Source of the DNA: Takakia lepidozioides
Lineage: Eukaryota > Plantae > Bryophyta
DNA: 64,000 bases
NCBI GenBank assembly: GCA_030704615.1
Contig: CM060733.1
Span: forward strand, 37,448,001-37,512,000
Reading direction: 5' to 3'
In this document: positions 1,445 through 64,000 of the stretch, one piece after another
Position numbering within the stretch: the first letter of the stretch is position 1
How the letters are laid out: each line of letters starts with the position of its first letter
Notes under the pieces: model-generated
What the model was told of the DNA's origin: nothing
What the model saw: the letters and a program-made list of their open reading frames with translations, nothing else
Databases searched by the model: none
Made by a program: the position numbers and the translations under genes

Positions 1445-1467
1445 GTGATGATCGGTGCCGATCATCA
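1445..1467. repeat. Single copy of the 24-bp palindrome GTGATGATCGGTACCGATCATCAC family (intronic)
   Basis: GTGATGATCGGTGCCGATCATCA read directly, inside the predicted 1344-1544 intron. Confidence 0.9.
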
Positions 1468-2703: not shown

Positions 2704-2961
2704 AAAGTGATGATCGGTGGCGATCATCACTTTCACATGAGAGAGAATGCAACATGGGTTGGCAAATCCTTATGATTATGTAGACTGCACAAATGGGAAA
2801 TGTGATGGTCGGCACCGACCATCACTTCATTCATCAGAAACAGACTGCCTATGATAACAGAGGCATGATTAAGGATGGAAACAAGGACATGATCAACAGT
2901 GACAACTGTTTGACTGGAGAATATCATAGCAGTGGATGTGATGATCGGTACTGACCATCAC
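2704..2961. repeat. Three copies of the 24-bp palindrome (intronic)
   Basis: Copies start at ~2707, 2802 and 2938, inside the predicted 2649-3048 intron. Confidence 0.9.
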
Positions 2962-6033: not shown

Positions 6034-6646
6034 TTTTTCTCACACTCGGCTAGCACTGTCTGGTTACCTACGCTCACTGCTCTAGCCGTCGCTGCGACTG
6101 CGGCGACCTCACTCTCACTTCCTACATGCTATTCTGTTTGATCTGTCTCCAAGTTCACATGCTGCCTAAGCGCTGCACCATCTTGCATGCGACGCCTCGT
6201 CATTTGCTCTCTTGATCTCGGCCTCTCTCTAAGCGATGTAAAATACAATAATTTCCTCCTCTTCCGAACCGAACAAGGAACCCTCTCCAACTTGACTTCC
6301 TCTCTTCCTCTAAGAAACAAGAAAGATGAACAGACTCGCTTTCTTTTGGGGTCCCGTCGTTTTGGAAGTGTCCCTGGAACCGTTCGATTCCCTCTTGCGT
6401 GTCCGATACTTGAACGTACGTTACAGTGAAAATAGCATAACCTAATTGGGACAGTTGTTCCTTTGCAAGGTTGTTTTGGGTTGTTGGCGTGTGCAAACAT
6501 AAAATTGACACGTGTCTTTTTTGTGACGGCTTCGTTAATATCACCGTTGGACGTCGCAAAGCTGAATCATCTGATTTCGCGAAGGAGCAACTCAGGGAAG
6601 AGAACCCCCCGCTCGGGGACGTAACATGGCTTCCTCCTAAAGGGAG

Positions 6647-38522: not shown

Positions 38523-38965
38523 TTACGAGTAATCCCCACAAGAACAAACCCCATCTTGGAAGTCGTGAAAACACTTGGGATCCCGTATAACAACTGCTCG
38601 CCCAATAGTTTTTGAGATGAACTTGGTGGCAGTGTGGTAGTCACCACACACCCCAAGAGTCTTGATGATGCAAATAGGTGCACAAGAGGGTGTACTGATC
38701 AGCCCAAAAGCACTGGCCGGCTTCTCACCATGGTGGCAAAGGGAAAATGCATTTTGCTCCAACTTAGTAACACACCAACTTAGTAATACATCATGTAACA
38801 CAAAGCGTGTGCCAGGCACATATCCAGCCGCCTTCATCTGTTCAGGCAACGACTCCAACTTAGTAAGAATTTCCTTAATTTGTGGATGAACTTTGTCTCC
38901 TACAACAAATATATGTACCTGGTTGTCAACCTCAATGCAGCTGTGTGGCCTGGCTCCATTCTCTC
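38523..38965 (-). pseudogene. Detached, degenerate E+/DYW domain of the PPR gene
   Basis: SCIEVDNQVHIFVVGDKVHPQ..MKAAGYVP..HHGEKPA..VCGDYH..RDPKCFHDFQDGVCSCGDYS. HSE is HGE, CxDC is CGDY and DYW is DYS. Confidence 0.85.
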
Positions 38966-39138
38966 AGACGCTAGCATGCAAAACTCCACTTGTGTTTGTC
39001 CGCCGTGACCACTTTAATGAAGAGCCTTTCCTGAGAAAGATGCCAGAGGTACTCTGACACCTCTCTGTTATATCCACTTGTGTTTTAACTAAAGACTGTG
39101 TGCAACTTTCCGTAGGTATTGAGGACTTCCATGAAGAA

Positions 39139-40803: not shown

Positions 40804-41218
40804 ACAGATTCACATCAGAGATGCTACAGCTCCTCATGTCGTTTGCTTCCCCTCTCTCCTTCCTCCCTCTTTAACTTAAAATTTTTCAGAGCGAGCGTGC
40901 ACAAGGCACACCAACTTAATGCACACACACGTGCGATCGATCACTGACAGGACGGTTTCTGGCCTATTCCCCGCCTCCCTTCAGGAGTGACATTGAACAG
41001 GGTGACACTAAGACGAATGTTGCTCCAATCGGGTGAAGCCGAAGGGAGTGTCACTCCACGTTCGTTTTGTCCGGTCGCTAGTCTGGAACGGCCCTTATAT
41101 ATCCGTCGGCATCAGAAAGCGTTGCATCAACGATTGGCAAGCGAGAAGGAAGACAGTGATCAAGGATCAGAAAAAGTGCGGAGCAGTTTGGCTCTGTCAC
41201 TCCCATCTCGCTCACAGA

Positions 41219-42870: not shown

Positions 42871-45800
42871 TTACCCCCGGCTACTGCAGAGAGTTGCTCT
42901 CCCCTTTCCTTTGGGCAGTTTGCAGGCGCCAGAATCTTCAACATCTTTGAGCTTGTAGTAGTGGGGCGCAATCTCAACCAACCACTCTGGCTTGATCTCA
43001 ATCACCTGTCGCATGAACTCCTTTGTGGTTAGAACAAGCTCATTGTAAACCACCCACCTTGCAGGCATCACCTTACACAGACCTGAACTTGGGTGTATGC
43101 TCACTGTTTGTGGATTCTTGATAGTGCAATATGATCCATTCTTTTGCAGCTTTGCTGTGTGATGAAAGAAGCCAGAAGTGATGGCCTTCTTTATGGCCTC
43201 AAGGTCATGTGGATTGGAAATAAGCTTGATATCCACGCGCTCCATAAGACCTACTAATTGGTCCCTGATGTTACGTGCTCGCTTCATACTCCGCACTTGA
43301 ATGTAATTTGCATAACACCATTGTGTAGAGTAATTCGTTTCCATCCATGTGTTGTACACCTTGAGGAGGGCAAGATGGTCGCCAACGTTCCCTGCATGGA
43401 AATTCATGTGTGCATTGTCAGCGTGCACTTGCTTGTTCTTGGGGCGGTAGAAAATAGAGTTTCCTGTAGAAAGCATGGCACATATGGTTACAATCTCCTC
43501 TGAGCATTGAAACTGATCTGAAGCGATCAACATCTTGGAGAGCATTGGGTCCAGTGGAAACTCCGCCATCCGCCTCCCTGTCTTTGTCAACTCCCCGCGG
43601 TCATTCAACGCACCGAGAGCATAGAGCTGCTCTAAAGCCCTGAAAAGTGTTTCAGCTGGAGGGGGGTCCATGAAGTCAAAGTTGATCGGCTCATGGATGC
43701 CCAATGTCTTCAGTAATAAGACCACATTACCCAAATTCGTTCTTTGAACTTCAGGTATTGTGTTCTCGTCCATTTCATTTCTGAATGACCACTTAGTGTA
43801 CAGACGATAACATCTTCCAGCAGAGGTGCGACCGACCCGACCAGCACGTTGTTGAGCCGCAGACTGAGAGATAGAAGTAACGGTAAGCGACTCCATACCA
43901 GAGCGAGGATTGTAGCTTTTTTGCTTACAGAAGCCGGGGTCTATGACATAGCGGATACCATCGATTGTAAGAGAGGTTTCTGCAATGTTGGTAGCCAGAA
44001 CAACCTTTCGAGTCCCCTCGGGAGATTCTTCAAAAATCTTTGCCTGCATTTCTGGAGGAAGATTTGCATAAATAGGCAGTATTATGATTTCTGAAATATT
44101 TGAACCAAGACCTCTAATCCTATGTTTCAGCATCTCTTCCATTGCTTCAATCTCCTCTTGACCTGGAAGGAAAACCAGAACGTCGCCTGTAGGTTCTTCG
44201 ATGTGGATCTGTAGGATTGTCATTATTGCTCCTTCTATAGAGCCCGCCGGTTCTGGTGTTTTTGCATAGAAGATTTCTACCGGAAAACGTCTACCTGGTA
44301 TACGAAAAATGGGTGCATCGTCAAAATAGGCAGAGAACTTCGTTGCATCCAAAGTAGCACTTGAGATCAGCAATTTGATATCCGTCCGAAACCGTGTGAT
44401 ATCCTTGAGAAGACCAAACAAGATATCTGTCGACAGGGTCCGCTCATGTGCCTCATCAATTATCATGACACTGTAGCTGGCTAGATCGGGTTCACTCAGA
44501 ATTTCCCGCAGAAGCATGCCGTCTGTCATGTACTTGATAATTGTAGCTTCTGAAGTGCAGTCCTCAAAACGGATGGAGTACCCAACCTCACGACCCAGTT
44601 TGACCGACATCTCTTGAGCTACACGAGCGGAGACACTCATGGCAGCCACCCTTCGAGGTTGTGTGCAACCTATTTTTCCAAGCTTACTGTACCCTGCTTC
44701 GTGAAGGTATTGGGGGATTTGAGTAGTCTTTCCACAGCCTGTTTCTCCTTCGATCACAAGAACTTGGTGATGTTTTATTGCATCGAGGAGTTGATCCTTG
44801 TACATATATATTGGTGTTGTCTTCCGATTCTCTAGAAGCTTGTGTGCGGTCTTTGCAGCTGTTGATCTCACTTCTTCATTTATTTCTAAATCTTCCTCAA
44901 CCTCGTGTCCAACCATGGTAGAAGCATGGATGAAATCAACCTGGTTGTCAAACACAAACTCATAATTATCTCCGCTCCTCTTGCTATTATGAGCTCCAAA
45001 CCTGAGGGTCCCTTTATCTCTTTGTTGTTCCTCCCACGATTCTTGTTCAGCAAATCTGTTGATTTTTCCATCCTTGTCCACATTCCTAATAAAATCTAAA
45101 GCACAATCAAATTTTATGCTCCTTCTGTCGTATTCCACAGGCATTCGATACTCCTCAATATCGTTCACATCCTTTGCACGGTGTTTTGCAAGCTCATAAA
45201 CTTCCTTCTTGTACGAATATTTTGCCTGCTCTTTGGTTGTCAGTTTTTTATCTCCAAATAAAAGCTCTTCATCAATCAACTCATCCTTGAGCATTTGCAA
45301 CTTCTTTGCCTCTCTCACTTTCAAGTACTCTTGTCTCGACTTTTCCCTTAGCGTAGGCAGAAGTTCGTTTCGTCCGTGAGCTTCTCCTTTTCGTCTCGCT
45401 TCCTCTACTTGTCTTTTCGACAACCTAAAACACTCTACGTTTCTTAGGGTACCGATATCCTTCTCATACAAACGCTTTTCCAACTCCTCCTCACATTGAT
45501 CCTCCTCTCGAACTCTTTTCCTTCCCGCCTCTTCACCATCATTTCCCTCCAGTTTCACCCGCCTGCTCCGACCCCGTTTCATGGGCCGCGCAGTGTCCTC
45601 GTCTACATCCTCTTCACCTTTTCTGCGACTGCTCCCGACGTTCTTCCCCACGTAGCCTACGTCCACCACAACTCTGGCAACCTCTGCCCGTTCAACATCA
45701 TCGGCATCCAACATATCAGACTGCGCACTCGAACCACCGACTTTGCATAACATGTGTCTATGCAAATTCTCGGCAAACGTCTGAGTACCTTTTGAAACAG

Positions 45801-45954
45801 GGAACTCGTAATTCTGCAAGTGATCGATTAGGTCTTTCACGGATTCGGTCTTCTCTGCTATTCTCATCACAAATTGAATCACGGTCGGTGTGTTGTAGCC
45901 CAGCAGTTTTAGCAACCAGTCTCCGATCCACCTGCGTGTCTCTTTGTCGTCCAT
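42871..45954 (-). CDS. Intronless DEAH-box pre-mRNA splicing RNA helicase, Prp2/DHX16 (ESP3/DEAH1)-like
   Basis: 1027-aa ORF with a PWI-like N-terminus, SRQEYLK..KKL, GETGCGKTTQIPQYL, TQPRRVAAMSV, DEAHER, SAT, LATNIAETSLTI, QRAGRVGR, HA2 and OB-fold ending WLVEIAPHYY. Confidence 0.95.
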   Translation of the reverse strand: MDDKETRRWIGDWLLKLLGYNTPTVIQFVMRIAEKTESVKDLIDHLQNYEFPVSKGTQTFAENLHRHMLCKVGGSSAQSDMLDADDVERAEVARVVVDVGYVGKNVGSSRRKGEEDVDEDTARPMKRGRSRRVKLEGNDGEEAGRKRVREEDQCEEELEKRLYEKDIGTLRNVECFRLSKRQVEEARRKGEAHGRNELLPTLREKSRQEYLKVREAKKLQMLKDELIDEELLFGDKKLTTKEQAKYSYKKEVYELAKHRAKDVNDIEEYRMPVEYDRRSIKFDCALDFIRNVDKDGKINRFAEQESWEEQQRDKGTLRFGAHNSKRSGDNYEFVFDNQVDFIHASTMVGHEVEEDLEINEEVRSTAAKTAHKLLENRKTTPIYMYKDQLLDAIKHHQVLVIEGETGCGKTTQIPQYLHEAGYSKLGKIGCTQPRRVAAMSVSARVAQEMSVKLGREVGYSIRFEDCTSEATIIKYMTDGMLLREILSEPDLASYSVMIIDEAHERTLSTDILFGLLKDITRFRTDIKLLISSATLDATKFSAYFDDAPIFRIPGRRFPVEIFYAKTPEPAGSIEGAIMTILQIHIEEPTGDVLVFLPGQEEIEAMEEMLKHRIRGLGSNISEIIILPIYANLPPEMQAKIFEESPEGTRKVVLATNIAETSLTIDGIRYVIDPGFCKQKSYNPRSGMESLTVTSISQSAAQQRAGRVGRTSAGRCYRLYTKWSFRNEMDENTIPEVQRTNLGNVVLLLKTLGIHEPINFDFMDPPPAETLFRALEQLYALGALNDRGELTKTGRRMAEFPLDPMLSKMLIASDQFQCSEEIVTICAMLSTGNSIFYRPKNKQVHADNAHMNFHAGNVGDHLALLKVYNTWMETNYSTQWCYANYIQVRSMKRARNIRDQLVGLMERVDIKLISNPHDLEAIKKAITSGFFHHTAKLQKNGSYCTIKNPQTVSIHPSSGLCKVMPARWVVYNELVLTTKEFMRQVIEIKPEWLVEIAPHYYKLKDVEDSGACKLPKGKGRATLCSSRG

Positions 45955-46086
45955 GCCACTCTATCTCCCGTTGACGTCTGTCTTGTTCTACACTGTCAGC
46001 CGCTTGCAGTGACTCAATCCTTGTGACTAAGTTGGTGCTACTTATACTCGACATGAATAAACAAAAGGCGGGAATGATCAAACTTT

Positions 46087-47950: not shown

Positions 47951-48919
47951 AGAGTTAATGGATGTAATGTAAGGGGAAAACAAGTGCCAATAAAACCCTA
48001 AGGTTTATCAAACGAACGGTGAACGGACGGAGATAAGGTAGAGTCGGAAGGAATGAATGTGGCAAACAGTGATGAATTCATCAAGGGCATGTGCGGATGA
48101 AGAGGATAGGAGAATGGATGACGTTGGGTATTACTTATGTGCTTCATTACGACAACGGATGAATGGATTATGAACGGTCAGCATCAAAGAACGGTTCATC
48201 GGGGGGGGCAGGAGGTGTGCTTTTACTAAGGAGGGCCAACGAGACTGTGGATGAATGAACAGAGATGTTGGATGAAGGTAGAGGAGATGGCGACATGCAG
48301 GACGTTGATGCAATACAGATCAGCGGCTGAGGGGGCGCCGCCCTGAATCAACAGGGTACATGACTAAGCAGATGCTGATAAATACGTTTTGAGCTGAAGG
48401 ATACTATCAAGACCTCATTAGTTGCCACTTGGCCATGTATTAAACACACAGAAGAGAGGTACACCCAAGGCGGGTAATGTGTTTAGTATTAGAATAATCA
48501 GTTGAGCGGTGATCAAAGTGGAGTGGCTCCAACTAAGGGGCTAACCTACTACGTTTTGGAGGGTACAAGGCAAGTAAGCAGAAAGACAACAAAGGGGCAT
48601 TAGCATTCGTAATGATGGGAATCAGGACTATCGGAGAGTGAGTGCAGATGGTAGACTGAGAGAGGAGATGGCCGCGAGAGGGTGGTCTAATCGCGATGGA
48701 CGTTGATACCATGAACTTAGGTAGAGATCAGAGGAGAGATTAGTGTTGTACTCCAGTGACGAGACAATACATATGCACGTTTTGGGTTCGCCCTTGATCA
48801 TAGTATGGCTGCACATTGTGTTGGTTCCAGTTCTTGAGATAGATAGAAGAATCGCAGTTCATTAGAGAGGGCTCTGATGTTTCTACTGGTGGTCGCATTA
48901 GTGAGAGAGAGTACTGAGG

Positions 48920-49107
48920 TGTCGTGCGCATACATATCGCTACACAACTACATCGCTGTCCAAAACCACACAACACATGTGCACGCCACACACTAGTATA
49001 TCATTAGTCCACCACTAGTCTAGCCACTAGTCCAACCACTAGGCTACAACTAGTCAGTCACTAGGCTGCCACTATGCTGCCCACTATGGCAGTCACTAGT
49101 CCACACA
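48920..49107 (-). repeat. LTR segment A, copy 1 (3' end of element)
   Basis: Near-identical to 58446-58621 (few substitutions, one 12-bp indel); begins TGTGTGG and ends CGACA on the coding strand; rich in CACTAG. Confidence 0.95.
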
Positions 49108-49118
49108 ATCGCCCCCCT
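49108..49118 (-). other. Polypurine tract
   Basis: AGGGGGGCGAT on the coding strand immediately precedes the TG of LTR segment A. Confidence 0.75.
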
Positions 49119-49367
49119 AGCTGGTGCTTAGGTCCCTCTAAGTCCAGATAGCCACAAGATGTGATAGTGACCATAGCCTCACTAAGTCCTCCACCACTAT
49201 CCCTACTACACTCAAACTCGATAGATCAAGAGGTCGGGTGCAAGAGTTGCCCCATCGTTAGTCGCCGTCTTGCAACCTGTGAACTTGAGCTTGGGATCTC
49301 ATGTATTGACTCCTATGAGTTTGGCCTCCCATGTCTTGTTAGCTGCCTCCAGTCATGTCCACTGCCA

Positions 49368-50917
49368 CTATCCCAAGCAGTGTGGACACAACCAATCTCC
49401 GTCAGGAACCTTCTCAAGAGGTGGTGTCAAGCATCCCATATGCCAATCCCTTGAGCATCGATCACACACCAGCATGGTGGCTTCCCCTTTGGCAGACCCA
49501 CAGAGCATGCACCTCAAACCTGCAGTACCAATGCCAAGTTTGGGTCAACTCTGCCATCGACATTGGGAAGGTGACATGGCGCACAATTACGCACATGGTC
49601 TTTCCAAGTATGCCATCCCGACCCTCCAAGATCAGGACTCCTGAGGGGCAACACCTCTCGAACCTCAGAATAACACGCCCTGCAGTAACATCCAGGGTCG
49701 TAGGAGCAGTCTGCTGCAAATAAACATAGTCATCAGGGCTAAACCTCCAAACCCCAGGACGATATCCTCCACCACGTATAGTGGCATACCTCAACGTATC
49801 ACGGTGCTGTGCAATGCAAGGTTCTCAAAAGCCATGGGCATGACTTCTTGAACAACTCTGCACGCTGATCACATACACGTACCCACACGTCCGGATCGTC
49901 AAGGTTAAGGACTTGAGCAGTGTCCCTACGAATGGCTGCAGGCAAATCCGGTCTCGGCCAAAGAGAAGGAAATATGGTGAGAAGGAGGCAAGTGAGGCTT
50001 GTTTGCTGAACCTGTAGCCCATGGCTAACCAAGGAACCTGAAGATCCCAATCTCCTAGGTGTCCCTTCTGCAAGCCATACTTGCGCAAACCCTCTTCACC
50101 GTCTGAAAACTCTCTCTGCCAAGCCATCGGCCTCAGGATAATCCCGAGAAATGGTGCGGTGGTCTATCAAGGCTTTATCACACAAAGCCTGAAACTCCCC
50201 CAAGAACTCTCTCCTTTGGTCCGTGAGTACCTTAGCTGGAGCACCAAATCGGCTAAGCACACGATCAAAGAATGCATACGCCCCCCTCACTAGCCTTGTC
50301 AGGCAATGGAACCAACTCAATCCACTTGGAGAAGTGCTCCACCATCACCAACACATATCTGTGGTGGTGCATAGTCAGTGGCAACGGTCCTACGAAGTCA
50401 AGACTCCACCTTTAGCCCAATCTCATGATTGGTAAAGGATGCAACTGTGGTGTAGGGGCGTTGAATGAAGCACGCACCTTGTCACACACCATGCACCTAG
50501 CCACGAACTGTTGCACCTCTGTATGCATACCACGCCACCAATACTGCCCCTGTGAGTGCGTCACACTCTAAAATGCCCCAACTCCTCATGGGCATGCCGC
50601 ACTAACCGTGCACGCTGTGTGGGGTGAGGCACAATCCTCACCCAAACATCCTCCCACACTCGAAACAGGTGTATCCCCTCCCACTTGAACCTCTTGGCTC
50701 GTTGTAGGATCCGATCCCTCTCCTTGGCAGTCACACTAGCTGTCGTGTCTCCAGTGCGGAGGTAGTCCAACACAACCGAATCCTCGTGTATATATCTAGC
50801 ACCACCTAGCTCATCACTAGTCTCAGGGTCCTCAGACACTCCGTCTACAGTCATCCCTGTTGTAGGTCCAACCTGACCTCCCGATGCCAAGATACACAAA
50901 AAACAGATGCATGCCAT
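49368..50917 (-). pseudogene. Retroelement integrase (HHCC zinc finger, rve core) with C-terminal PHD finger; frameshifted
   Basis: HAHEELGH..YWWRGM..CMVC; WSLDFVGPLP..VEHFSKW..FGAPAKVLTDQ..DGLAER; SPYFLLFGR. PHD CMLCGSAKGEATMLVCDRCSRDWHMGCLTPPLEKVPDGDWLCPHC at 49368-49511. Confidence 0.9.
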
Positions 50918-51233
50918 CCCGGCACCATCTCCTCGTCCATCTCACCATGCCACCGAGCTCCAGTGTCATCCTGCTAGCTCGTGCATGGATTGCAACTCAA
51001 TCCATCCGCATCCATATTGACCTAACCCGGTCGATGCACAACCTGAACATGTCTCTCATGCTCCTCCACCGTAGCACGAGAGGCAAAGCAATTCCTGTAA
51101 GCCTCAGGAACCGCCGTATATGTCGTCTCTCTCCTCTAGTGACAATAGGTCCAATGTCAGGCTCCCAATTGCCCTTCGTAACTGCAACCTTAAGTCCAGC
51201 AGACTTAGAGGTAGAGGACGCGTCCCGTGGTTG

Positions 51234-53126
51234 CTATGCCGCAACCTCTTGAGCAATACTCCTTGCCTGCTCAGTCAATGACAAGGCCTCATCTTGCCCC
51301 ATCATCTCATCCTTGAGGACTTCCTCCACCCGAGAAAAATCCCCAACCTCATCTATCACCGCCACCTTGGCTGCCAACTCCCTCTGAACCTCGAGCACCT
51401 CCCACGTGTGCCATGGATGCCTGCACCCCGTGGTCCTCACATGCTCGCCCCCACTCGCTGCCTGTACCGTCTCGGTAGGCAGAGAGACCATCGAGGGAAG
51501 TGTACTCCGCACTCTTCGTTGCTCAGCCATAGCCAAGCTGATAATCCAGGTCAAGCAATTTAGATCCATTGCTTGCCCCAACACCTGACGACGTGATGCC
51601 TCAGAAAGAGAAGGCACCGCCGTGGTCCCAGTGGAAAAACCCATAGCCCGCTCTCGCTCGTCGGCATTAGGCTCCACTAATTGCTGCAACTGAGCATCCC
51701 ACAGGAGGCCACGTCCATTATCCCAAAAAGCATGCGATCCTGGGAAGCTGAGCAGTGTAGGTAGTACCGCTCGTGGTTGACCCACCTTGTTGACCACTGC
51801 CAAAGGTGAACGGTCATCGTATCTCACACGCTGAGACTGCCTCCCTGTGTCCAAAATGTTATCCACTGTGAGGTGTGTTGGCCACTGCACCCCATCAAAT
51901 GCACGCTTAAGCAGTGCGGGTGGCATCAAGTTAGTCCACCATAACCGTGGACGATGAGCCCGTGACCCCACTGCAGCTGCATCCAGCAATACTGCTGACC
52001 CAAGCCACAACCGGACTTGATGTACACTGGCCATCACCCTGGCCCGAGAATCGCCTATCAGTGGCACATTCTCCAAGATGTATGCTGGAGATACAGCCTG
52101 ATGAAGCTGTAAATGGCGCAAAACCCGCACCATCTCCCAAAACAGACCTGACCTCGAGTCTCGCAATCCATTGCCATGCTTGGCTGATGAATACCCTTGG
52201 CACGGCCAACCTGCCACTACCAAATCAATGAAGCCAACCCGCTCCAAATCCTGCGCCCCCAGCAAAGAGATGTCTGCTGGCAAGGCCTGCTGATATCCAC
52301 GAACCGCAGACACCGACAACAACTCACGATACTGCTGCACCAACTGAGCAATATAACGGAGTAAGACGCGTCGTACAGTCTCATCCCTCTCCATATATAG
52401 GTAACGCCGAACTCGTACACCTGCCTGTAACAAAGCAGCCAATCCGGTGCTGATCCCACCAAACAAGTCCAGAAGACAAATGCCTTCATCCGGATACTGC
52501 CACACAATAGATGTGGTGTCCAATGGAGACAACTGAGGTGGTCCTGGTGCAATCCCCGCACTCTTCTCCTCTCCTGATGGTACAAAAGCCTCCACCCAGG
52601 CTTGTTGCACCCGTCGATCAGCATCCCGCTGCAAATCCTTGCTCATGCCCCACAATGGAGTCTGAGCAACCATGGTAGGCAACTCCGCCATACCATACAT
52701 GTCATCATGCTCTCCCGGAGGTGGCACATCCTCTGAATGAGCGTTGCCCTCAAGCAACTCTCTAGGCCAACTCACTGTCGCTGTGAATGCTGCTAGTGTC
52801 GGCATCTTGCCTCGTTGGGCAACCGCAACTCCTCCTATGAACGTCATAGGGAGCTGCACACGCCGGCCCTCCCCTGACTGCCATGCAGGCCTATAGGAAG
52901 CTGACTCCTCCCAAAAATCCAGGGTGAAGCCCATGGGGTACAACACTGCCCCACCAACAAGGACATCGTACGAGACCGCGTTTGTCACAATGGCCTTGGC
53001 TCTCATCACTGATCCATCTGTAGGATGATCCGGCTGTAGTCTGATAGCCAACTCACGCCGTGTCATGCCCCGAACCTGCTCTGATCCTCCCAAAGATGTC
53101 TGTATCTGGAAAGGGCACGGCTCCAT
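51234..53126 (-). CDS. pol segment: protease C-terminus plus C5-cytosine DNA methyltransferase domain (~51540-52490)
   Basis: Uninterrupted 630-aa ORF with motif I LDLFGGIS, II YMERD, III DI, IV AGWPCQG, V DSRSGLF, VI ILENV, VIII AHRPRLWWTN, IX ERERAMGF and X RQVLGQAMD in canonical order. Confidence 0.93.
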   Translation of the reverse strand: MEPCPFQIQTSLGGSEQVRGMTRRELAIRLQPDHPTDGSVMRAKAIVTNAVSYDVLVGGAVLYPMGFTLDFWEESASYRPAWQSGEGRRVQLPMTFIGGVAVAQRGKMPTLAAFTATVSWPRELLEGNAHSEDVPPPGEHDDMYGMAELPTMVAQTPLWGMSKDLQRDADRRVQQAWVEAFVPSGEEKSAGIAPGPPQLSPLDTTSIVWQYPDEGICLLDLFGGISTGLAALLQAGVRVRRYLYMERDETVRRVLLRYIAQLVQQYRELLSVSAVRGYQQALPADISLLGAQDLERVGFIDLVVAGWPCQGYSSAKHGNGLRDSRSGLFWEMVRVLRHLQLHQAVSPAYILENVPLIGDSRARVMASVHQVRLWLGSAVLLDAAAVGSRAHRPRLWWTNLMPPALLKRAFDGVQWPTHLTVDNILDTGRQSQRVRYDDRSPLAVVNKVGQPRAVLPTLLSFPGSHAFWDNGRGLLWDAQLQQLVEPNADERERAMGFSTGTTAVPSLSEASRRQVLGQAMDLNCLTWIISLAMAEQRRVRSTLPSMVSLPTETVQAASGGEHVRTTGCRHPWHTWEVLEVQRELAAKVAVIDEVGDFSRVEEVLKDEMMGQDEALSLTEQARSIAQEVAA

Positions 53127-55411
53127 ATCCGCCTCTGCCCAACATCAATGGCTGAGCTCCCGAGTCCAATAAGACCCGCAGTGGCCAGTACCTCTTGCCT
53201 GCCGATCCACTCAAACAGAAAATGCCATCCTGGTTGTCTAACATGACAACTCCAGGTGTAACCATGGCGCGCTCAATGGCTAGCCTAGCTGGCAGCTCCA
53301 TCAACCTGGCAGCTGTAGCTTGCCATGGCGCCGCCGTGGCAGTCTTGACCCTCAAATCCGAGGATCCCTCCGGCACTACACCTCCCACTATCTCCACAGA
53401 AGATGAAGTAACCTCCCTACTCTCACAGAGTGTAGCTGCCAACCTGAACACCTCAGCTGGTCTTACCCCCGGCGTCGCAATCATGGTAGATGAGAACAAT
53501 GGAGCCTGATGTGGCCGCTCCTAGCAGCACACTAGCTGCCGTAGCCTTGGCAACACTAGGTAGTGGTGCTACCCGTGTAGCTCTCCCCAATGGCATAGTA
53601 ACCTCCGCCTCGGTAACAGTCGGGCGAGAACTTGGTGTCATGGACGGCGTCGACACTGTCTCCACCAATGTGAATGACTGAGGAAGCCTGGCCTGACGGC
53701 TTGCCTCCCCACGCTATGGATCCAACTCCACCTCCGCACCTCGTGGCTCAGGAACTCGTGTTGCTCCTCGAGTCACTGCCGCAGCTGACTCCACTTGCAC
53801 TAGTGGTAGTCCTGCCCCGCACATAGTGGTAGTGGTAGTGGCACCCCTCATTAGTGGTAGTACTGCCCCCCACATGAATCCCATGCCTCCCAAGTCTCCT
53901 CCTTCAGGAGCAGGAGGTGGACCATCCGGCCTTGGAGCCGGTACCACCTGAGCTGTGGCCATGGCAGCGAGCCTCTGCTCTAGCTGCTGAAGCCGGTTGG
54001 CCATGCCTTGGTCACCACCCTGACCTCCACGTCCTTGGCCATGTTGAGCTTGCCCTTGGCCTGCACCTCGTGCCTGGCCACCTCGTGGGCTGCTCCACCT
54101 CGCCCCCGGCCACCATTGTTCCCTTGGAACTGGCCTGGGCGCAACTCAGGATGCAAACCATAGCATTGGGCTTCTCCATGCCCGTACTTGCCACAATGCC
54201 CACACTGCAACTGTGCAGGCTGTGCATGTGTCGGCCCTTTGCCTCCCTCTGGGCAATCCTTCTTGACATGGGGTCCTCCACATGTCCAGCACACCACATC
54301 CGCCCGTTGTTGGCCAGCAAATGAAGGGAGAGACCCCTGCATCTGAGGTCCTCTCTGCCCTTCCCTGAGCTTCACCTGAGCCCCCTTGTTGCCTTGAGCA
54401 CGTTGAGGTAGTGGTTGGCTAGGAGCACCACTACCCCGTGGTGTCTCCTTAGCAAATCCCACCATGACCACTCGTTCCTCCACCATGTTGAGCTCTATCC
54501 GCTCTGCCAGCAAAAACACATTTGCTAAGGTGGGTTGGGCCGCTTGTAGGAGAGTTGCATCCCGCACCCTTCTCTTCAACTCCTTGTCCAATATCCCATA
54601 CCAGAATTGGACTGCCTGAGCTTCCGTAACCCCTTGGGTTACATTTATCAAGCGCCTCATGCGAGTGAAAGCCTCCCTCAAGCTCTCGGTCGGCTTCCGT
54701 TGGAACTCTTGCAAGCTCCGCAACTTCTCTGTCCTCACCCCTTGGTAGTTCCCTCTCAACTCTTCGAAGAACTCCACAATAGGGTTGAAGGTAGGCACGG
54801 GTACTGGTGCTAGTGCGGTAGTGGCTTGGGTAGACGTCGTAGCTACGGTACCACTAGTCCCACTGCTGCTTGCTGAAGCTGCCAGTGCAGCGGCAGGTGT
54901 AGCCACTGCCCTCGTGACTCTAGTGCCCCTAGTGATGGAGACATAGTCGGGTGACCAGTACATCCTCCACTCCTTGATCTCAACCTCATGCCCCCGCCTG
55001 AACTCATGGTAATCATCCATAGGCGGCCCCTCAAGGTGCTGAAACAGCCCCTTTCATGCCGTGAAAGGCCTAAATAGTTGTGGATGGCGCATTTGCTGCA
55101 AATCACACCAACTATCAAACTCTTGGATAAAATCATCCAACTCGATGATGCCCCACCCCAGAGTACCTTCGTGGCCCCTTGGTAGCTCCATACATCTCCT
55201 CCATTGTGTCCCACAATAATGGCAAGGAAACAACTTGCACCGTCGGTATGAGTCTTCCTGATTCACAATCCGAATCAGAACATTCCGTAGAAGACACAGG
55301 AGGTAAAGGTGGCCTAAACCGCACACCTCGTCTCGTGTACCCACTAGTATCACTAGTGCTCGAACCGGCACTATCCCCAGCAACTAGTGGCACCTCCATG
55401 TTGACACTCAA
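53127..55411 (-). pseudogene. gag (capsid-like region, two zinc knuckles) and aspartic protease N-terminus; stops and frameshifts
   Basis: LDDFIQEFDSWC..LQEFQRKPTESLREAFTRMRRL; CWTCGGPHVKKDC and CGHCGKYGHGEAQC knuckles; VLLDSGAQP protease active site at ~53150-53175. Confidence 0.88.
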
Positions 55412-56084
55412 CTGGTCATGAACATGTCTCTAACCCCCTCTCCACAAGGTAACCGGGTAGAGAACCTGTTGCGGCTTATGCTTTGGAATACTAAGTTCCT
55501 AACATAGCCTACACCTGTACCTGCATCCACCGCAAGCACTCCTATGGTTGGCTGATCATCACCTCCAACCTCACCACAGGAGAAACAATGATGGTCTGGT
55601 TGGTCATCACCATAGCCTCACCATCGACAGCATGCTCTAAGACTGGCCGGTGATCAAATCCGGACCAATCACCTATAAAAACAAGCGCCCACACAAAACT
55701 AGCATGGCGTACAGTCAAGCATGCAGGTATGGAGGGGATCCAAACACAATAAATCAGAACGACAACTCCCCCACACCAAAAACAACTCCACGGTGTTGCT
55801 CCTGCAAGGACACCCCAGACCAAACCCGGACTGACTCTTGCCTCCACCTACGGAAAGGTCTTGGCCTAATGAGAGGGTGGAAACTACGAGGAAGAGAAGC
55901 TAAAGCAATGCCTAACCCCAACATGCCCTCATCCCAATACTCTTCCTCTCCTCTCTTCCCTCACTTGCATGACCATGGGAATATCATGAAGATACTCCTC
56001 AAACCGCCCTCCACGAGCTTCAAAATTCGGCCTTCAAGACCACATGCCAGTCCTTAGACAGTCCATCAATGCCTCCACGAGTCA

Positions 56085-56600
56085 GCACAGGCCGTCCACA
56101 GGTCAACACGGGCCACCACAGACCAGCACAGGCCCACACACCTCACTGGTCACAACCATCACAGCCCCACACAGGCCACAGCCTGTCACAGCCCGTCACA
56201 GCCCATCACAACCCCAAAGGCCACAGGCACAGCCTGTCACAGCCCTACAAGGGTCACAGGGTCACAGCCCCAAAGGCCATAGCCTGTCACAGCCCCTCAC
56301 AGCCCCATAGGCCACAGGGCACAGCCTATCACAGCCCGCCACAACCCATCACAACCCATCACAGCCTGTCACAGCCCCTCACAGCCCCACAGACCACTGG
56401 GCACAGCCTGTCACAGCCCGCCACAGCCTGTCACAACCCCTCACAGCCCGTCACAGCTCGCCACAGCCTGTCACAACCCGTCACAAACCCCACAGGCCAC
56501 AGGGCACAGCCTGTCACAGCCCCTCATAGCCCGTCACAGCCCCACAGGCCACAGGGCGCAGCCTGTCACAGCCCCTCACAGCCCCACAGGCCACTTATGA
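56085..56600 (+). repeat. Minisatellite of TCACAGCCC/GCCTGTCACAGCCC units inside the retroelement leader
   Basis: Dozens of CACAGCC(C/T) motifs with higher-order CACAGGCCACAGGGCACAGCCTGTCACAGCCC blocks. Confidence 0.92.
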
Positions 56601-57029
56601 CAGTTTAGCCATTTCTCCAAGGGGTTTAGCCACGCCAAGCTAGGGTTTGTGTCTCTTGGACTCTAGGCTTCTTTGCACCAAGCTATGGCGGCTGTGAAGA
56701 AATCAGCAAGGTATTCTTGCTCTTTCGGCTCCCACACACCACCAATAGTAGCCCTAAGCCATGAGGAAGATGGTTGCCACAAACCAAGCCTTCTTTCTCA
56801 CTTAGACTCCCCAAACACGCCACTAAACTCAATGGCAAACAACCAAGCCTTGCTGGTTTCCAGCCCTTGTGAGCACTCATTCAAGCGTTTCCCTTGGCCA
56901 TAGCATCTGTCTTAGAGCTTATTCCAGCCCCCTACACCTGCCACTTCAAGAGCCATGCTCTATCTAGGCTTGAGGTTGAAACCCCAACTCAGAACACGCT
57001 CTACAAGTGTCGGACTGTCACATAAGAGC

Positions 57030-57440
57030 AGATCAGCCCCTTACCTTCTCTTCTAGTTCTCTAAAGCTTGAAAACAAAAGCCCAATGGACTGAAGGCATG
57101 CTCCACACATGCCCCACTCTCACCACCAGAGAATCAGCCCCTTTGCTTTCTTTCTTGCACCCACCAACCTAAAAATACACGCTTCAGCGGGCTGGAAGCA
57201 TGCTCCACACATGCCCTACAGGGAAACCAGCCCCTTCATTCCTTTCTTGCACTCCCAAACCTGAAAGTACAAGCCTTCAACAAGCTGAAAGCATGCTCCA
57301 CACATGCATTGCTCTCACATAAGGGAAGTCAGCCCTTCCCTCTTCCTTGCTTGCCCTCCAAGCTTGAAGATGGAAGCTTCAATGAGCTGAATACATGCTC
57401 CACACATGCAACCTCTTCACACAGAAGTATCAGCCCCTAT
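57030..57440 (+). repeat. Four diverged ~100-bp tandem units inside the retroelement leader
   Basis: CATGCTCCACACATGC occurs four times and CAGCCC(C)T five times at ~100-bp spacing. Confidence 0.85.
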
Positions 57441-58106
57441 CTTGGCTCCTTAGCTCCTTGATGCTCTCTAAGACAAGACTAAGCACTCCACAGCCCTTGC
57501 CAAGCTCCTGAAACCCTAAGGCTTACATTTCCAACCACAAGACACTCCTCTTGTGGTGCAAGAGCTCTTCTTCCAAGCTTTGAAACCCTAGGTGCACATT
57601 CCATGGCCTTGCCGCACCTCTTAGCTCATGTTCCAGCCCTGCTTTTGTCATAACAAGAGCCCTCTCAATGCTGAAGCTCGAGATTGAAACCCAATCTCTA
57701 CATACTCCACAAAGTGCACTGATTTGCCCCAAGCCAAATCAGCCCTTTCGCTTGGTCTTGCAATCCTTCACACAATGAAAGCTTGCATTCCCAAGTCCAG
57801 TTCTCAGCTTTGCCACCAAAGCCACTATAACCTGCTCTTGACTGGTCCTCTTCCCAATCGTGCTTGCTCATGCATGTACACAATCTGAAACCATCAAGAT
57901 GCTCTGGAATTACCTGCAGCATGGTGCTTTCATCTCTGAAGCTGAAGATCAAATGCCAAGGTCTACCACCTCGTAACCCACATCGCCTCCGCTTCTAACA
58001 ACCAAGAGCTCCATGGTGCTCCTTGCATAACAACCTGGTTTCTCTCATTCTCAAGCAAAAACCACAAGTGCTACAACTAACTCGTATCTGGCACTCACAG
58101 ATACGA

Positions 58107-58122
58107 GCTCATCTTTCTCGAG
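58107..58122 (-). other. Primer-binding-site position occupied by a self-complementary sequence (putative self-priming PBS)
   Basis: CTCGAGAAAGATGAGC follows the LTR-terminal CA on the coding strand and is the exact reverse complement of 58282-58297 inside LTR segment B. It does not begin with TGG. Confidence 0.7.
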
Positions 58123-58443
58123 TGATAAAGAAGAAGAATACAAGCACAAGCTCATGCGAGCTCACAAAGCTGAAGCACATGCATATATAAACTCACCACT
58201 CAAATACAAGTCAAGCCAAGTGCACCCCACGCCATGGGGAATCCACACTACGGCGCCATAGCTAGGCGCGGTGAGGCTCAACTCGAGAAAGATGAGCCTC
58301 CCGCGCTTGCCGTGAAGATAACCACTCCAGGGCCTAAATCTGCCTTGACCCCTGGATTGACACTTGGGCCAATCCCAAATGTCAATATATAAAAGCTAGC
58401 TATTTCCTAGCTAGTTTCACACTAGTGGTAAAATAACTTGACA
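58123..58443 (-). repeat. LTR segment B, copy 1
   Basis: Near-identical to 58623-58949; TG...CA bounded. Confidence 0.95.
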
Positions 58444-58445
58444 AC

Positions 58446-58621
58446 TGTCGTGCGCATACATATCGCTACACAAATACATCGCTGTCCAAAACCACACAAC
58501 ACATGTGCACGCCACACACTAGTATATCACTAGTCCACCACTAGTCCAGCCACTAGTCCAACCACTAGGCTACAACTAGTCAGTCACTAGGCTGCCACTA
58601 TGCTGCCCACTAGTCCACACA
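58446..58621 (-). repeat. LTR segment A, copy 2
   Basis: Near-identical to 48920-49107; separated from B1 by 2 bp and from B2 by 1 bp. Confidence 0.95.
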
Positions 58622-58622
58622 A

Positions 58623-58949
58623 TGATAAAGAAGAAGAATACAAGCACGAGCTCATGCGAGCTCACAAAGCTGAAGCATAAACTCATGCATATATAAACTC
58701 ATCACTCAAACGCAAGTCAAGCCAAGTGCACCCCACGCCATGGGGAATCCACACTACGGCGCCATAGCTAGGCGCGGTGAGGCTCAACTCGATAAAGATG
58801 AGCCTCCCGCGCTTGCCGTGAAGATAACCACTCCAGGGCCTAAATCTGCCTTGACCCCTGGATTGACACTTGGGCCAATCCCAAATGTCAATATGTAAAA
58901 GCTAGCTATTTCCTAGCTAGTTTCACACTAGTGGTAAAATAACTTGACA
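58623..58949 (-). repeat. LTR segment B, copy 2 (5' end of element)
   Basis: Near-identical to 58123-58443; followed on the plus strand by the GAGG target duplication. Confidence 0.95.
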
Positions 58950-59401
58950 GAGGGTAACGTAAGCATTCAAACAGTATGCATGCTACGGGTGGCGGTACAG
59001 AGAGCGACGTCATGGATTAGCCACACGGGCAAAATGGGACGAAAGTAAATGAACGATCTAGGACTTGGAGAGAATAGCCAAAGGGGCATCTGTATGATGT
59101 CAATCATTGAGCACGCACAAGAACAAGAGGCGAGTAAACCAGATTCAGCAGGCATAGTCTTGTAGAGGCGGATAAGGTGATAATGGGATCATCCGAACGC
59201 TGATATGGTTGTGCATACGGGTATTACAAGCAGCCCGTGCCGCACCACCCCACGGGGTCACGATATCTTGTCTGAACAGTGGTCACAGGTTGATAAGAAG
59301 AGAAATGAACGAACAAGAGATAGTGATTAAACAAGTTGTCAAGTCCAGTCTAGGTGTCATAATGATTTCTTACTTTCCGCTGCGCCTCATGTAGCATCAA
59401 A

Positions 59402-62400
59402 CACTACAACAGATTGCGGCTTTTATGACTCCCATGGGTGCGCAGTCACGACAAATTTGTGGCAGAAATGCCATTTGCAGTCGTAAATGCCTTTGAAGTC
59501 ATAACATAGATCACGACGAAGCCGTTTATGCAACTGTATGACTCCGAACTTTGCGCAACACAGGTCAAACAAGTTTGACCAAGAATATTGCCATGGCGGA
59601 TATGACTACCAATCAGGGTCATGCCCATTCTAGAATGACGTGTGCATATTGCTAAACGGACATATGACTTCATGACTGCCACTCTAATGCATTCTGCCAG
59701 ATCATCACATGTCGTCATGACATGGTGAGTCTGTGACATGGAACAACTTATGAGGTGTCTACATATGATTGGTTAAGTGGTTTTGATATTGTGGTGCGGG
59801 GGATACAAGTGTAGGGAACGGTTGCACACGAAGCAGATTAGTAGGCAGTTTGCGCTTTGTGGAGAAGAATGGAACGTGAAGCCAACATGCTAGAGAGGCG
59901 ATCTGGAACCGCATCTGTTTGTGACGTTACGTTCAAATGGTGGCGTGCATTTCAGTATTTGTTGATCGCGGACAACTTCAAAAGCAGGCCTCATACTGCG
60001 GAATAACAGACGAACAAATGATGCATTCAGGGGATACCTAAACTTATGCAAATCATTCAATTCACTCATGAGAATGATGCAAAACATTGCTCAACAAAAG
60101 TCTTTGAGCAGTGACCAAGAACACCAACAAAATATAAAATCCAATACACTCTAACATATCGCCTTGTGCATGCCGTCCCTGTAGCAGGCCGTCCCGGAGC
60201 TCGACGCCGTGTGGTACTGGAATAGAAGCTTGGCAATACGGTCTGTTCAGATCCACCCACTTTGCCATGGGGGGGTGTTCTAAGAATGGGAGAGCCCTTG
60301 AATTCTGCTTCTTGTATGATAAAACAACTGAGATAACAACTCATGTTGTTCTCTCTAATGTACATATCCCCAATGACCTGCCCCAAGCTAGAACAACAGC
60401 AGGATGACATCAGGGAATAATGATGTGGTGCAAGGCATGGAACACCTGCAGGGCAGCAGCATTGTATTGCTGAATGTACTGCACCCTGCTTGAGCCATTC
60501 ACAGATGGGGGACTCTACAAGTGAGTCACATGGTGTTATATCTGGGGCATGAGAGAAACTGCCCATAAAATGCATCTGCACAAAGAACCCATTCAACCAG
60601 CCAAAGCATCATCTACGCGGATTGCCGGATTTTTTTGGGGAAAAATGCAAACATGATAAGTAGGGACCAAGCTTAAAAGCACTCCACTGGTATTCAATGG
60701 TCCATAAACACAAGCCTGCCCAATATAAGACCCACAAAATCACTAGGGCAATTAGGTAATGTAAACTGAAAGGTACATGCACTTTGTCAACAATGTACCC
60801 AAAGGCAGAACTGATGTGTAAATCTGCATGCCGTTCCAAAGTCTATAGTGACATAAATGTCATGTCACGTTGCCAGACAGACACGCCATGTAAGTTGGAC
60901 ACCTCCAACACCCTGCAAAAAGGACACCCCCAAGGGCAACCCTTAGTGCCAGTCTTACGATTCCCACATTATTCATGAATCAATCGGGATTACATATTGA
61001 ATTTTGCCCAATACCACCCTTCATATACTTGAGATAGAGAAAGGCAGTTGGGGGAGAAAGTCGTACCTCATTCAAGGTACTAGTACACATCCACATCAAC
61101 CAACTCCTCATCACTGGACTCTGAATCTCCATTGCAACTGTCCTCCGTGGGACATGGATGTGCTTCCTCAGATCGCATGTCTCTGTAAAGTGAAGCAACC
61201 TCTTTAGGTGTCACTTGGATGGTCTGGCCCACCCTGTCACCAGCAACATTGGTCTCTTCAATGTGATTGGGGGCTAAGAGGCCTAATACACTTGCAATAT
61301 CATTGTTGCAAATGCTCACATCACAAACAGCCCTGCGTGACCTGGGGTTTTTTTCCAGCACCATGTTCCATCTCAGTTCATTCACACACTCAGAGAAAAA
61401 AACTTGCTCGACCTGTGATGGGAGCACAAAAGGCTGTTCAAGTGGAGGCAACAAGTGGGAGAAATTCACCGATGTGAAGCCAGAGTCATCCTGCTTCATT
61501 GACACAGGCTGAGAGCCCACACGTCGTGCACGTACCCATGAACACAATAGCACCGTGGTGTGTGTGGAGCCATAATCCAATTCTAAAATCTCCTTTATGA
61601 CACCCACATACCGTACGCTCTCCACCACCTGCTCACCTGAAATGCAAGTACAGTCATGCTGGAAAACAGTAGAGACCCCCGAGTCATATGTCACAAAGGG
61701 GCTGTTGAGTCCATCTGAAGTAACCCTGAAGTGGTTTCCATAAGCCGACATGCTCTTGTATGATGTTGCAATTAATGATGGGGGTTTGGACATGTCCAAC
61801 AATTCCTTGCAGGCTGAATCAGTAGCATGGTTGGCAACACTTGACACATGCTGGCGGACTGCCGTTACCAGCCATTCTGCAAAGTGAGGGGGAGCACGGA
61901 TCCTGTTCTGGTTAGCAGCATTTTCAGTCTCCAACCTGGATTTCTCCACCTCATAGGACCTGCCAACACACGCACAACCACATCAATTTATCAAGTGCAA
62001 CCCCTGCAGCCGATGGAAGAACTACTGCACACACACCTATACAAAACATACCCATGCATAGCAGGTACCAGAAGCTGTGACATGCACTCACGTTTGCCAC
62101 TTACCCCAACATAATGCTCAAACTAGGATGGTTGTGAATGACGTAGTCGTGGACAAGCTGCAACAATTCGAGGGTCAACCTCCGTGGTCAACCAACTCCT
62201 TCCAACACCCAGCCCGACACTGATTCCTCGTCTCCTGTATCCCACACTCTCCGCCTAGTAGCATCAACAGAAGACAAGTACTCTGTACAAAATCCCAATG
62301 CCTCGTCAAACACGTAGCCCTCCGCCATACTGCCCTCAGGCTTTGCCAAGTTTCGCACATACCCTTTAAATTCCTTCATTGCTCTCTCCACCGGGTACAT

Positions 62401-64000
62401 CCACCGAGAAGCTACAGGTCCACACAAATCCAGCTCATCCACCAAGTGGATAAGTAAATGTGTCATAACATCAAAAAAGGAGGGTGGGAACTCTTTCTCC
62501 AGAAGACAAAGAGTCACTACCACCTCCTTCTTCAATTCCTCATGCTCGGTGGGATCAATGAATTTTGCACAAAGCTTGCAAAAGACATGAGACACTCTTA
62601 GTATGGCATTGCGAACCCCAGGCGCCATCAACCCACGTAGAGCAAGTGGGAGGATCTGTTGCATGAGCACATGATAATCATGTGACTTCAATTGGCTCAA
62701 CTTTTGTTTGACCACATGCTTTTTGAAAGCAAAGGCATGGCCAGTGGGTACTTTCAGATTCGTGATAATCTCCAGGAACACCCGTTGCTCTGTTTTTGTG
62801 AGCACATATGGCGCATCAGGCATTACCAATGTATCCACTCTGGTGGGATGGCGTCGTAACCAAAGAGGCTTTTGAATGCCCTGCAATTCCAGATTGTGGC
62901 GAACTTTCATCGTGTCTTTTTCGCCGAAAAGAGTCTTGATTATGTTCTCCGTCACGTTCTTCTTGCAATGCATGGTATCAAAAGTGTGGCGGATGATAAG
63001 ATGCTGCACCATGTGGTCTAACAAATTAGGTACATTGCAATGTAGTCATGAATGATGTTAACAGCACAGGTTCAGTAAACAAACAATCATGCACAATGAA
63101 AACCAATGCACTGTTATGTTCCCAAAACACAGGTGTGGTAATCGCACCTCCCAGTAAGGCAAGTCAAACAGAATGGACAATCGTTTTACGCCATGGAGCC
63201 TGGGGGATCGTTCTGTGCGCCTACAGTCCCACCATCATCAATCCATTGTTTGTAATGTTGTGCACGCTCCTTGATTTCGGTGGCTGTCACTGTATGTGGA
63301 ACAGGTCTCATGTCTCACGCCCCATTAAAAATTCTGGATCTTCTATAGGCATGATTGTGGGGAAGATAGCGTCGATGCCCTTGGAATATCAATTTCTTGC
63401 AAGCTGGGGAATATCTGGAATCGACTTGAGGTCCACATGCTGGACAAGTAGAGTACCCTTGGTGAACCTGACCTGATAACAAGCCATAGGCAGGGAAGTC
63501 ATGTATGGACCACATGAGGACTGCACACATGGTAAAAGCCCGCTCTCCTTCAATGGCTGCCACATCCACGGCTGCAACTCCCACCCACAATGCCGCTAGC
63601 TCCTCCACTAGTGATTGTAGGTAAACATCCACATTTTCACTTGTCACAGATTCCTTTCCAGGAATGAGGAGTGTTAACATGACAAAAAAATTCTTCGTTA
63701 CCAACCATGGAGGTAGATTATAATTGAGCACCATGAAGGGCCAAGTGGACCAAGAAGCGGATTTTGTGCCATAAGGATTGACCCCATCCAGTGCCAATCC
63801 AAGACGCAGATTTCTTGGATCAAAAGCAAAATCCGGCCACGTGTTGTCAATATGGCACCAAGCCTTACTGTCTGCAGCATGCCAGACCATGCCATCTGCA
63901 CTTCTATGATTGTTGTGCCACTTCATGAGCTCTGCGAGCATCTTAGCTCGGAACATCCGTTTCAATCTAGGTATGAGAGGAAAGTATCGCAGCACCTTCT
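59402..64000 (-). mobile_element. CACTA (En/Spm) DNA transposon, continues beyond the window
   Basis: CACTACAAC terminus at 59402 and a TnpD-type transposase on the minus strand. Confidence 0.8.
61080..64000 (-). pseudogene. CACTA TnpD transposase (Transposase_21, DUF4218- and DUF4216-like regions), 5' end outside window
   Basis: LRYFPLIPRLKRMF..DPRNLRLGLALDGVNPYG..YNLPPW..HDFPAYG; LKSHDYHVLMQQILP..FPPSFFDVMTHL..RWMYPVER..PEGSMAEGY; YVGVIKEILELDYG..QPFVLPSQVEQVFF. In-frame stop at 63315-63317; probable introns near 63020-63150 and 61950-62100. Confidence 0.9.

Follow-up and report, generated by a model that had tools for sequence, protein, structure and literature searches.

The window, a stretch of 64,000 nt of Takakia lepidozioides DNA, harbours on its minus strand a copy of a Gypsy-DNMT3-PHD retrotransposon. 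In the sense direction, the element reads A', B, two spacer bases, A, the PBS, a long leader, gag, protease, a C5 methyltransferase domain, an RNase H remnant, integrase, a PHD finger, a polypurine tract (PPT) and B'. Its parts are as follows.

48920-58949, minus strand: whole retrotransposon copy, with ends TGTC...GACA
48916-48919: TSD GAGG (4 bp), left copy
58950-58953: TSD GAGG (4 bp), right copy
58624-58949, minus strand: repeat A' (distal U3, R, U5), with 6 substitutions and a 6-nt indel relative to A
58446-58623, minus strand: repeat B (proximal U3), its first base abutting the end of A', the putative join of the cDNA ends
58440-58449: internal att-like site GACA-NN-TGTC at the B/A boundary
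58123-58443, minus strand: repeat A (distal U3, R, U5), ending ...TCA beside the PBS
54142-55194, minus strand: gag remnant with frameshifts and stops
51234-53508, minus strand: protease and DNMT3-like C5 methyltransferase region, behind which RT and most of RNase H have been lost
49526-51081, minus strand: C-terminal RNase H remnant and DDE integrase, in broken frames
49377-49544, minus strand: PHD finger where a chromodomain would sit
49110-49118, minus strand: PPT
48920-49109, minus strand: repeat B', ending at GACA and the TSD

Residues 1-468 of the RT-RNase H ORF of a complete relative are unmatched in the window copy, which therefore lacks RT and is non-autonomous as it now stands. The gene order, PBS, PPT and short TSD are those of Ty3/Gypsy elements, with the RT missing from the window copy and a TSD of 4 bp. 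The order of gag, protease, RT, RNase H and integrase is complete in the relatives L039 and L040, and the nearest relative of L039 Pol with a solved structure is Ty3. A PHD finger rather than a chromodomain is found at the integrase C-terminus of the window copy, L039, L040, L060 and P0019, and Pfam gave no chromodomain match in the clade. The DNMT3-like domain of the window copy matches PF00145 (E 2.7e-11). Among 31 protein matches, those of Marchantia polymorpha are the best (up to 59%); a Klebsormidium nitens protein is a homologue (34%), and Sphagnum fallax proteins match as well. By its sequence, the element belongs to the KnitGypsy-Dnmt3 kind. Judged from run X1 contigs, the family is far more abundant than the unique flank, a comparison of contig depth and not of copy number. 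The 2.7-kb leader contains a 10-nt microsatellite-like array (56135-56640) and repeats of about 100 nt (57070-57460).

Adjoining the element on the minus strand are DUF4216/DUF4218 remnants (60066-63045), which we take to be typical of a CACTA-type transposase. Also on the minus strand are a DEAH-box RNA helicase (42871-45960) with an intron-free stretch of 1029 aa, and a PPR gene with E+ and DYW deaminase domains (38523-40809), split into two parts in separate frames; this PPR-DYW gene marks the DNA as that of a land plant. A degenerate tandem array of about 230-nt units occupies 27500-29700. RRM and RRM_2 matches on the plus strand (19718-22711) possibly mark a Mei2-like gene, and at 1435-6036 a short palindromic motif (core of about 22 nt) recurs in at least 16 dispersed copies, some of them in 170-nt units, which may derive from the hairpin-rich termini of a DNA element or from its satellite.

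Pairing of the PBS with the LTR

All features relevant to priming are read on the minus strand.

58107-58123, minus strand: PBS, directly 3' of the LTR end, without TGG; core 58111-58123
58281-58297, minus strand: anti-PBS in A; its conserved core, 58281-58293, is the predicted self-primer
58787-58803, minus strand: second anti-PBS copy, in A', with one mismatch at 58794
58266-58306, minus strand: hairpin 1, which encloses the anti-PBS and is predicted to form when the upstream U3 is on the RNA
58209-58217, minus strand: 3' strand of helix P2, motif GCTTGACT, pairing with 58275-58283 at the primer 3' end
58081-58107, minus strand: hairpin 2, directly downstream of the PBS

A preliminary description of this DNA suggested that 16-17 nt beside the LTR end pair with a site inside the LTR, and 58107-58123 is indeed the exact reverse complement of 58281-58297. 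None of 2000 dinucleotide shuffles of the 500-nt LTR reached 17 nt, the best complement averaging 5.2 nt with a maximum of 9. The site had been described as a hairpin loop plus a whole arm; the 12-nt loop holds, but the arm contributes only 5 of its 8 nt. A 6-nt palindrome, CTCGAG, is contained in the PBS (58117-58122) as well as in the anti-PBS (58282-58287), there in the hairpin 1 loop. It could serve RNA dimerisation; other families do not retain it.

A metagenome scan yielded 71 loci with relatives of the element, while 127 pattern matches among viral contigs included none that was related. One group of loci forms a Sphagnum-like family, a member of which (L024) holds a 141-aa stretch identical to an S. 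fallax protein. The Sphagnum-like PBS differs from that of the window and begins with ACTCAAAG, and its LTR partner matches in the same register, with at least 17 pairs, including one G-U, in L024 and in L032/L033 (a single insertion), and with 12 contiguous pairs in L006. In L039, which has about 40% protein identity, 16 of 16 positions are paired, a result reached by none of 2000 shuffles. A weaker 12-nt match at a similar spacing occurs in L060, where the LTR end is not independently fixed. When perfect-match length alone is counted, the Sphagnum-like copies reach 8-10 nt, which was equalled in 67, 5 and 18 of 2000 shuffles. Of the first 16 PBS positions, 11 vary between the window, L039 and the Sphagnum-like family, and the pairing is intact in the best copies. 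Compensatory PBS/LTR changes among relatives, which the preliminary description had proposed as a check, are thus present: the register is kept with different letters in both the Sphagnum-like family and L039. Because MAFFT misaligned the L039 primer among 10 R-U5-PBS regions, the LTR end served as the anchor for counting pairs; L062, L040, L053, L056, L070 and L045, which have no usable PBS (contigs that end early, or no match), were left out. A TGG start was found in none of the PBSs of the window, L039, L060 and the 11 Sphagnum-like copies.

Within 11 Sphagnum-like PBSs (from 9 insertions), positions 1-12 are nearly constant, and position 13 is mismatched in 8. In the window family, 58110 (PBS position 14) is changed from C to G at 22% of run X1 depth, with its partner unchanged. 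In run X1, no variant of the 13+13 core reaches 1%, which alone is not significant (about 1.8 expected), and changes within the core appear in single contigs at 58119 (X7) and at 58290 and 58291 (X12). Judged from these comparisons, the conserved duplex is 11-13 bp, shorter than the 17 bp in the window.

The usual spacing from TATA to the start is about 30 nt. In L039 and in all nine Sphagnum-like A copies scanned, the first T of TATA lies 41-43 nt upstream of the primer 3' end, which would place the RNA start 11-14 nt upstream of the latter. A canonical TATA is absent from the expected place in the window copy, and none is clear in L060; in all four families, a pyrimidine-A step falls at primer position 11-13. 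For the window copy, the start is predicted near 58293 in A (58799 in A'), rather than the 58297/58803 of the preliminary description.

Hairpins, helix P2 and the proposed priming RNA

An 8-bp hairpin with a 12-nt loop had been proposed at 58273-58280/58293-58300. Its arms are a perfect inverted repeat, and the structure is larger than was thought: hairpin 1 covers 58266-58306 and comprises 14 bp with one bulge (-30.3 kcal/mol). In the fold of an RNA beginning at 58297, the 5' end is brought onto the PBS region (z -5.9), and a U3-containing RNA forms hairpin 1 in place of the PBS duplex. Most starts from 58302 to 58294 give a predicted duplex probability of 0.5-0.6 (0.21 at 58296), against at most 0.02 for starts at 58310 or upstream; a start at 58293 gives 0.03 or 0.46, according to where the RNA is cut off downstream. 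The hairpin/duplex switch of the preliminary description finds a counterpart in this predicted exclusion for the window and for two of four Sphagnum-like loci (L006 and, with long upstream sequence, L024), but not for L032/L033, in which the 5' arm is mutated; L039 is inconsistent.

Two adjacent changes (58299 and 58300), which define a 7% subfamily, shift the bulge of hairpin 1 and retain -30.1 kcal/mol, and only 0.9% of 2000 random double changes keep the hairpin as well. Since this subfamily preserves the structure, and since the core arms are common to the window and the Sphagnum-like family, hairpin 1 looks to be under selection. Against a general conservation of the pairing, the 5' A copies of four Sphagnum-like loci (L017, L022, L026 and L030) carry independent deletions centred on hairpin 1, by which the anti-PBS is partly or wholly lost.

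In helix P2, the primer 3' end and the next six bases pair with the GCTTGACT motif, which is conserved across three families. The window and 11 of the 13 scanned Sphagnum-like copies have P2; folding also shows it in L039, where two G-U pairs are replaced by standard pairs. A compensatory change is found in L063, and a 10% variant at 58213 converts a G-U pair of P2 to G-C. In the minimum-energy folds, P2 occupies the last 3-4 primer bases, and the primer cut site is therefore only loosely placed.

Hairpin 2 was also part of the preliminary description, and its arms, 58081-58090 and 58098-58107, are a perfect 10-bp inverted repeat at the PBS edge. One compensatory pair (58090 and 58098, 15-16%), the two changes of which occur together in an X7 contig, is matched by 2.3% of random doubles; a triple-change subfamily weakens the hairpin and does no better than random (30% of 2000). 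As a clade-wide feature, hairpin 2 was rejected, no equivalent being seen by eye behind the PBS in other families.

The following course of priming appears likely. Transcription would start about 30 nt behind TATA, at the first base of the hairpin 1 loop, an A (58293), so that the 5' arm of hairpin 1 would be absent from the RNA 5' end. The first 11-13 RNA bases would then pair with the PBS, beside the conserved helix P2, and would probably be used for priming, with the primer presumably cut free by RNase H as in Tf1. The window copy itself has lost RT and most of RNase H.

Because the pairing is kept with other letters in relatives, no PBS examined begins with TGG and a TATA box in relatives puts the predicted start at the edge of the conserved duplex, we consider Tf1-type self-priming by the element's own RNA likely, in agreement with what the preliminary description had suggested. 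That the PBS binds a host tRNA or tRNA half, the LTR match being incidental or a mere RNA-structure element, appears highly improbable. Half-tRNA primers without a TGG start are known in plant Copia lineages (PMC6317226), but a tRNA primer would keep the PBS constant; its divergence within one clade, where three families differ at 11 of 16 positions and the LTR partner changes in step, thus speaks against a tRNA, as does the missing TGG. Neither is there a credible Rfam match, 57900-59000 giving a single one at chance level (E 0.84). The search for tRNA genes by ARAGORN covered the window and the 71 loci and found none there. The element's own RNA might instead prime from elsewhere, as a 3' R copy, a short LTR-derived RNA or a second packaged genome, with hairpin 1 as a processing signal. 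The same bases are present in each A copy, and structure-preserving changes maintain hairpin 1. This alternative is nonetheless quite unlikely, as the TATA spacing in two families sets the RNA 5' end at the edge of the conserved duplex, the internal copies are predicted to be sequestered, and the anti-PBS of the window lacks an AATAAA-like signal. It is likewise doubtful that hairpin 1 is a true switch, upstream starts yielding a translated, non-priming RNA and the downstream start a priming one. The drop in predicted duplex probability from 0.5-0.6 to at most 0.02 with upstream starts is in its favour, and Tf2 priming in S. pombe is controlled by start-site choice (PMC5341516). However, the two start sites have no support of their own, the exclusion is not predicted in L032/L033, and masking of the 3' R copy requires no regulation. 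The folding results suggest that hairpin 1 probably masks internal primer copies more than it acts as a regulated switch.

Inserted ends and split repeats

The PPT and PBS delimit an ordinary LTR (B + A), but the insert ends at GACA-NN-TGTC within that LTR; in the window and in relatives, the inserted ends lie at this internal palindrome and not at the LTR ends defined by the PPT and PBS. At 58444, G accounts for 99% of run X1 depth, which makes the palindrome perfect. Contigs of run X1 exit the element at 58446 into varied flanks (30 contigs, agreement 0.37), and an X8 contig reads PBS-A-flank. The palindrome lies behind PPT-B in 9 loci, 4 of them distant, and L006 has a single internal match.

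The repeats are arranged as A-B-A-internal-B in the window, A-internal-B-A-B in L026 and A-internal-B in L021 and L022, the self-repeat scan having covered loci of 4 kb or more. The 15 Sphagnum-like 3' ends comprise 5 that run on from B into A, 9 that stop after B and 1 truncated where its contig ends. B was found upstream of A at none of 11 5' ends, and A-B-A-internal-B was found only in the window. Where both ends are available, a perfect 4-bp TSD flanks the TGTC/GACA ends in three of four loci (L026, L021 and L022), and in the fourth it has one mismatch. In 3 of the 15 Sphagnum-like 3' ends, the internal part breaks off 167, 282 or 2948 nt short and runs directly into the first base of B, and one of four A/B joints carries 17-19 nt of filler, both of which suggest that a free U3 end was joined before insertion. 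In L009 (6578-6810) and L014, which represent one insertion, the place of A is taken by an inverted piece of B and PPT, with the junction 13 nt before the PBS; it may be a product of inversion or template switching.

These ends could be accounted for as follows. After priming, ordinary strand transfers would give a linear B-A-internal-B-A cDNA, and the junctions suggest that this cDNA is closed end to end into a 1- or 2-LTR circle. As the ends and TSDs indicate, the DDE integrase may then cut GACA-NN-TGTC within the LTR and insert the element there, the products being A-internal-B-A-B, A-internal-B or the A-B-A-internal-B of the window. A 2-LTR circle cut at one or both palindromes would yield exactly these layouts, that of the window corresponding to a cut in the 3' LTR. 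The split repeats thus likely reflect integrase cutting of a conserved internal palindrome in circularised cDNA. If the last base of the primer pairs with the A at the LTR end, the cDNA ends would give an A/B junction that shares one A, which is one arrangement that fits; an A/B junction with one shared A is seen in both families. In the window layout, no 3' repeat would follow in a transcript from A, which would hence lead nowhere. A transcript from A' could take B for its repeat, but carries a mismatch in its primer copy.

Split repeats might also come about after insertion, if ordinary B-A LTR copies recombined or nested in one another, with neither a circle nor an internal cut. The family is high-copy with many rearranged joints, and inverted and deleted copies do occur (L009/L014, L021). 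We regard this origin as very unlikely, however, because the TSDs flank the TGTC/GACA ends and not the PPT/PBS-defined ends in the window and in three of four loci, and because the run X1 contigs leave at 58446 into 30 mostly different flanks. A/A' and B/B' are moreover similarly diverged (6/321 and 3/178 substitutions), and the palindrome is retained in distant relatives. A joint reading, in which the element primes itself, the masking is left open and the circle route is the best account of the ends, seems probable to us.

Tf1-type elements self-prime with ordinary ends, so self-priming and the split LTR need not imply each other, and a mechanistic link between them is a guess. The chances appear about even that this Gypsy clade, from algae-like hosts to land plants, separates the ends made by RT from those used by integrase, combining self-priming with a circle as the normal route and with insertion by cutting a palindrome in U3, and that self-priming, through the untidy cDNA ends it may leave, favoured the move of att into the LTR. 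A comparable circle-based insertion is that of IS3-type copy-out-paste-in elements.

Relation to known elements

Experimental proof of self-priming exists for the fission-yeast Tf elements, and elsewhere it is mostly predicted; Tf1 carries extra U5 helices. In Tf1 and Tf2 of S. pombe, Tj1 of S. japonicus and Tf1/sushi elements, as in the window, the PBS adjoins the LTR and is complementary to a short stretch of R (PMC7175516, PMC4600332, PMC5341516). The PBS of the Tf1 group has no tRNA match, just as a TGG start is missing here, and the 11-nt primer of Tf1, released by RNase H (PMC7175516), is close to the 11-13 nt predicted here. The window element differs from Tf1 in its DNMT3-like domain and PHD finger and in inserted ends that lie within the LTR and not at the RT-made ends, and its start site and primer cleavage are predicted only. 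A hairpin over the upstream edge of the primer, as found here, is not mentioned for Tf1 in the available text of PMC7175516, PMC4600332 and PMC5341516.

Among plant LTR elements, self-priming has been predicted for 12%, with Tcn1 chromoviruses and TAR Copia among them (Neumann et al. 2019, PMC6317226), from a complementarity of at least 10 nt of LTR to sequence 0-5 nt after the LTR. With 17 nt, the window element shows a pairing of that type; Tcn1 elements, however, are chromoviruses and TAR belongs to Copia, whereas the clade described here has a PHD finger and no chromodomain match. The available part of the PMC6317226 supplement, outside which its large tables probably lie, contains no Marchantia, Klebsormidium, Sphagnum or PHD.

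A Gypsy Pol with a Dnmt3-like domain was described as KnitGypsy-Dnmt3 in Klebsormidium nitens (de Mendoza et al. 2018, PMC5890265), and the legend to Fig. 4c states that its repeats are arranged as in DIRS. The Dnmt3-like domain in a Gypsy Pol recurs in the window copy, and split direct repeats in the window and L026, although the order in the window is mirrored (A-B-A-internal-B) and RT is absent. The available text of PMC5890265 and three supplement files give no mechanism of priming or integration ('circular' has 0 matches, and 'primer binding' none). Nothing on priming or circle integration in Gypsy-DNMT3 elements was found beyond this 2018 figure legend in a literature search that lay outside Repbase reports.

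The A-coding-B-A-B split direct repeats of PAT/Ngaro-type DIRS, exemplified by SymbioDIRS (PMC5890265), resemble those of the relatives. DIRS of this type encode a tyrosine recombinase, whereas the window clade has a DDE integrase, PBS, PPT and 4-bp TSDs; Pfam found rve and Integrase_H2C2 and no tyrosine recombinase in the plus-strand ORFs tested. On the minus strand, three relatives have stop-free stretches of 150-295 aa. Troyka, a three-LTR group, was considered for the window element and rejected, as it has CG...CG termini and a 3-bp TSD and is confined to animals (PMC12440569), as against TG...CA, 4 bp and a plant here. Foamy virus integrase, also a DDE enzyme, can cut palindromic LTR-LTR junctions of 2-LTR circles (PMC1180852), and in both systems the palindrome cut would consist of two att ends in a circle. 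The foamy virus palindrome, however, is the join of the RT-made ends, and its provirus is colinear, whereas in the window clade the palindrome lies inside U3 and the join of the RT ends is retained in the insert.

While self-priming is a known mechanism, a conserved RNA junction combined with the proposed integration at an internal att is new. The present data extend the predicted self-primers by a clade with DNMT3 and PHD domains, whose distant families show covariation, and the conserved RNA junction (the primer/PBS helix, P2 and the predicted masking hairpin) may hint at where the primer is cut. If the circle route is true, 2-LTR circles, which are usually thought to be dead ends, would be a normal intermediate of a high-copy plant family. 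With close relatives in the tractable model Marchantia, the integration of circles by a DDE integrase becomes testable. Such elements would be mis-annotated by LTR-finding tools designed for two full LTRs. In L060 (2-4729), the methyltransferase region lies between RNase H and integrase instead of before RT, with the att palindrome unchanged, and the element adjoins a 2153-aa ORF without a Pfam match.
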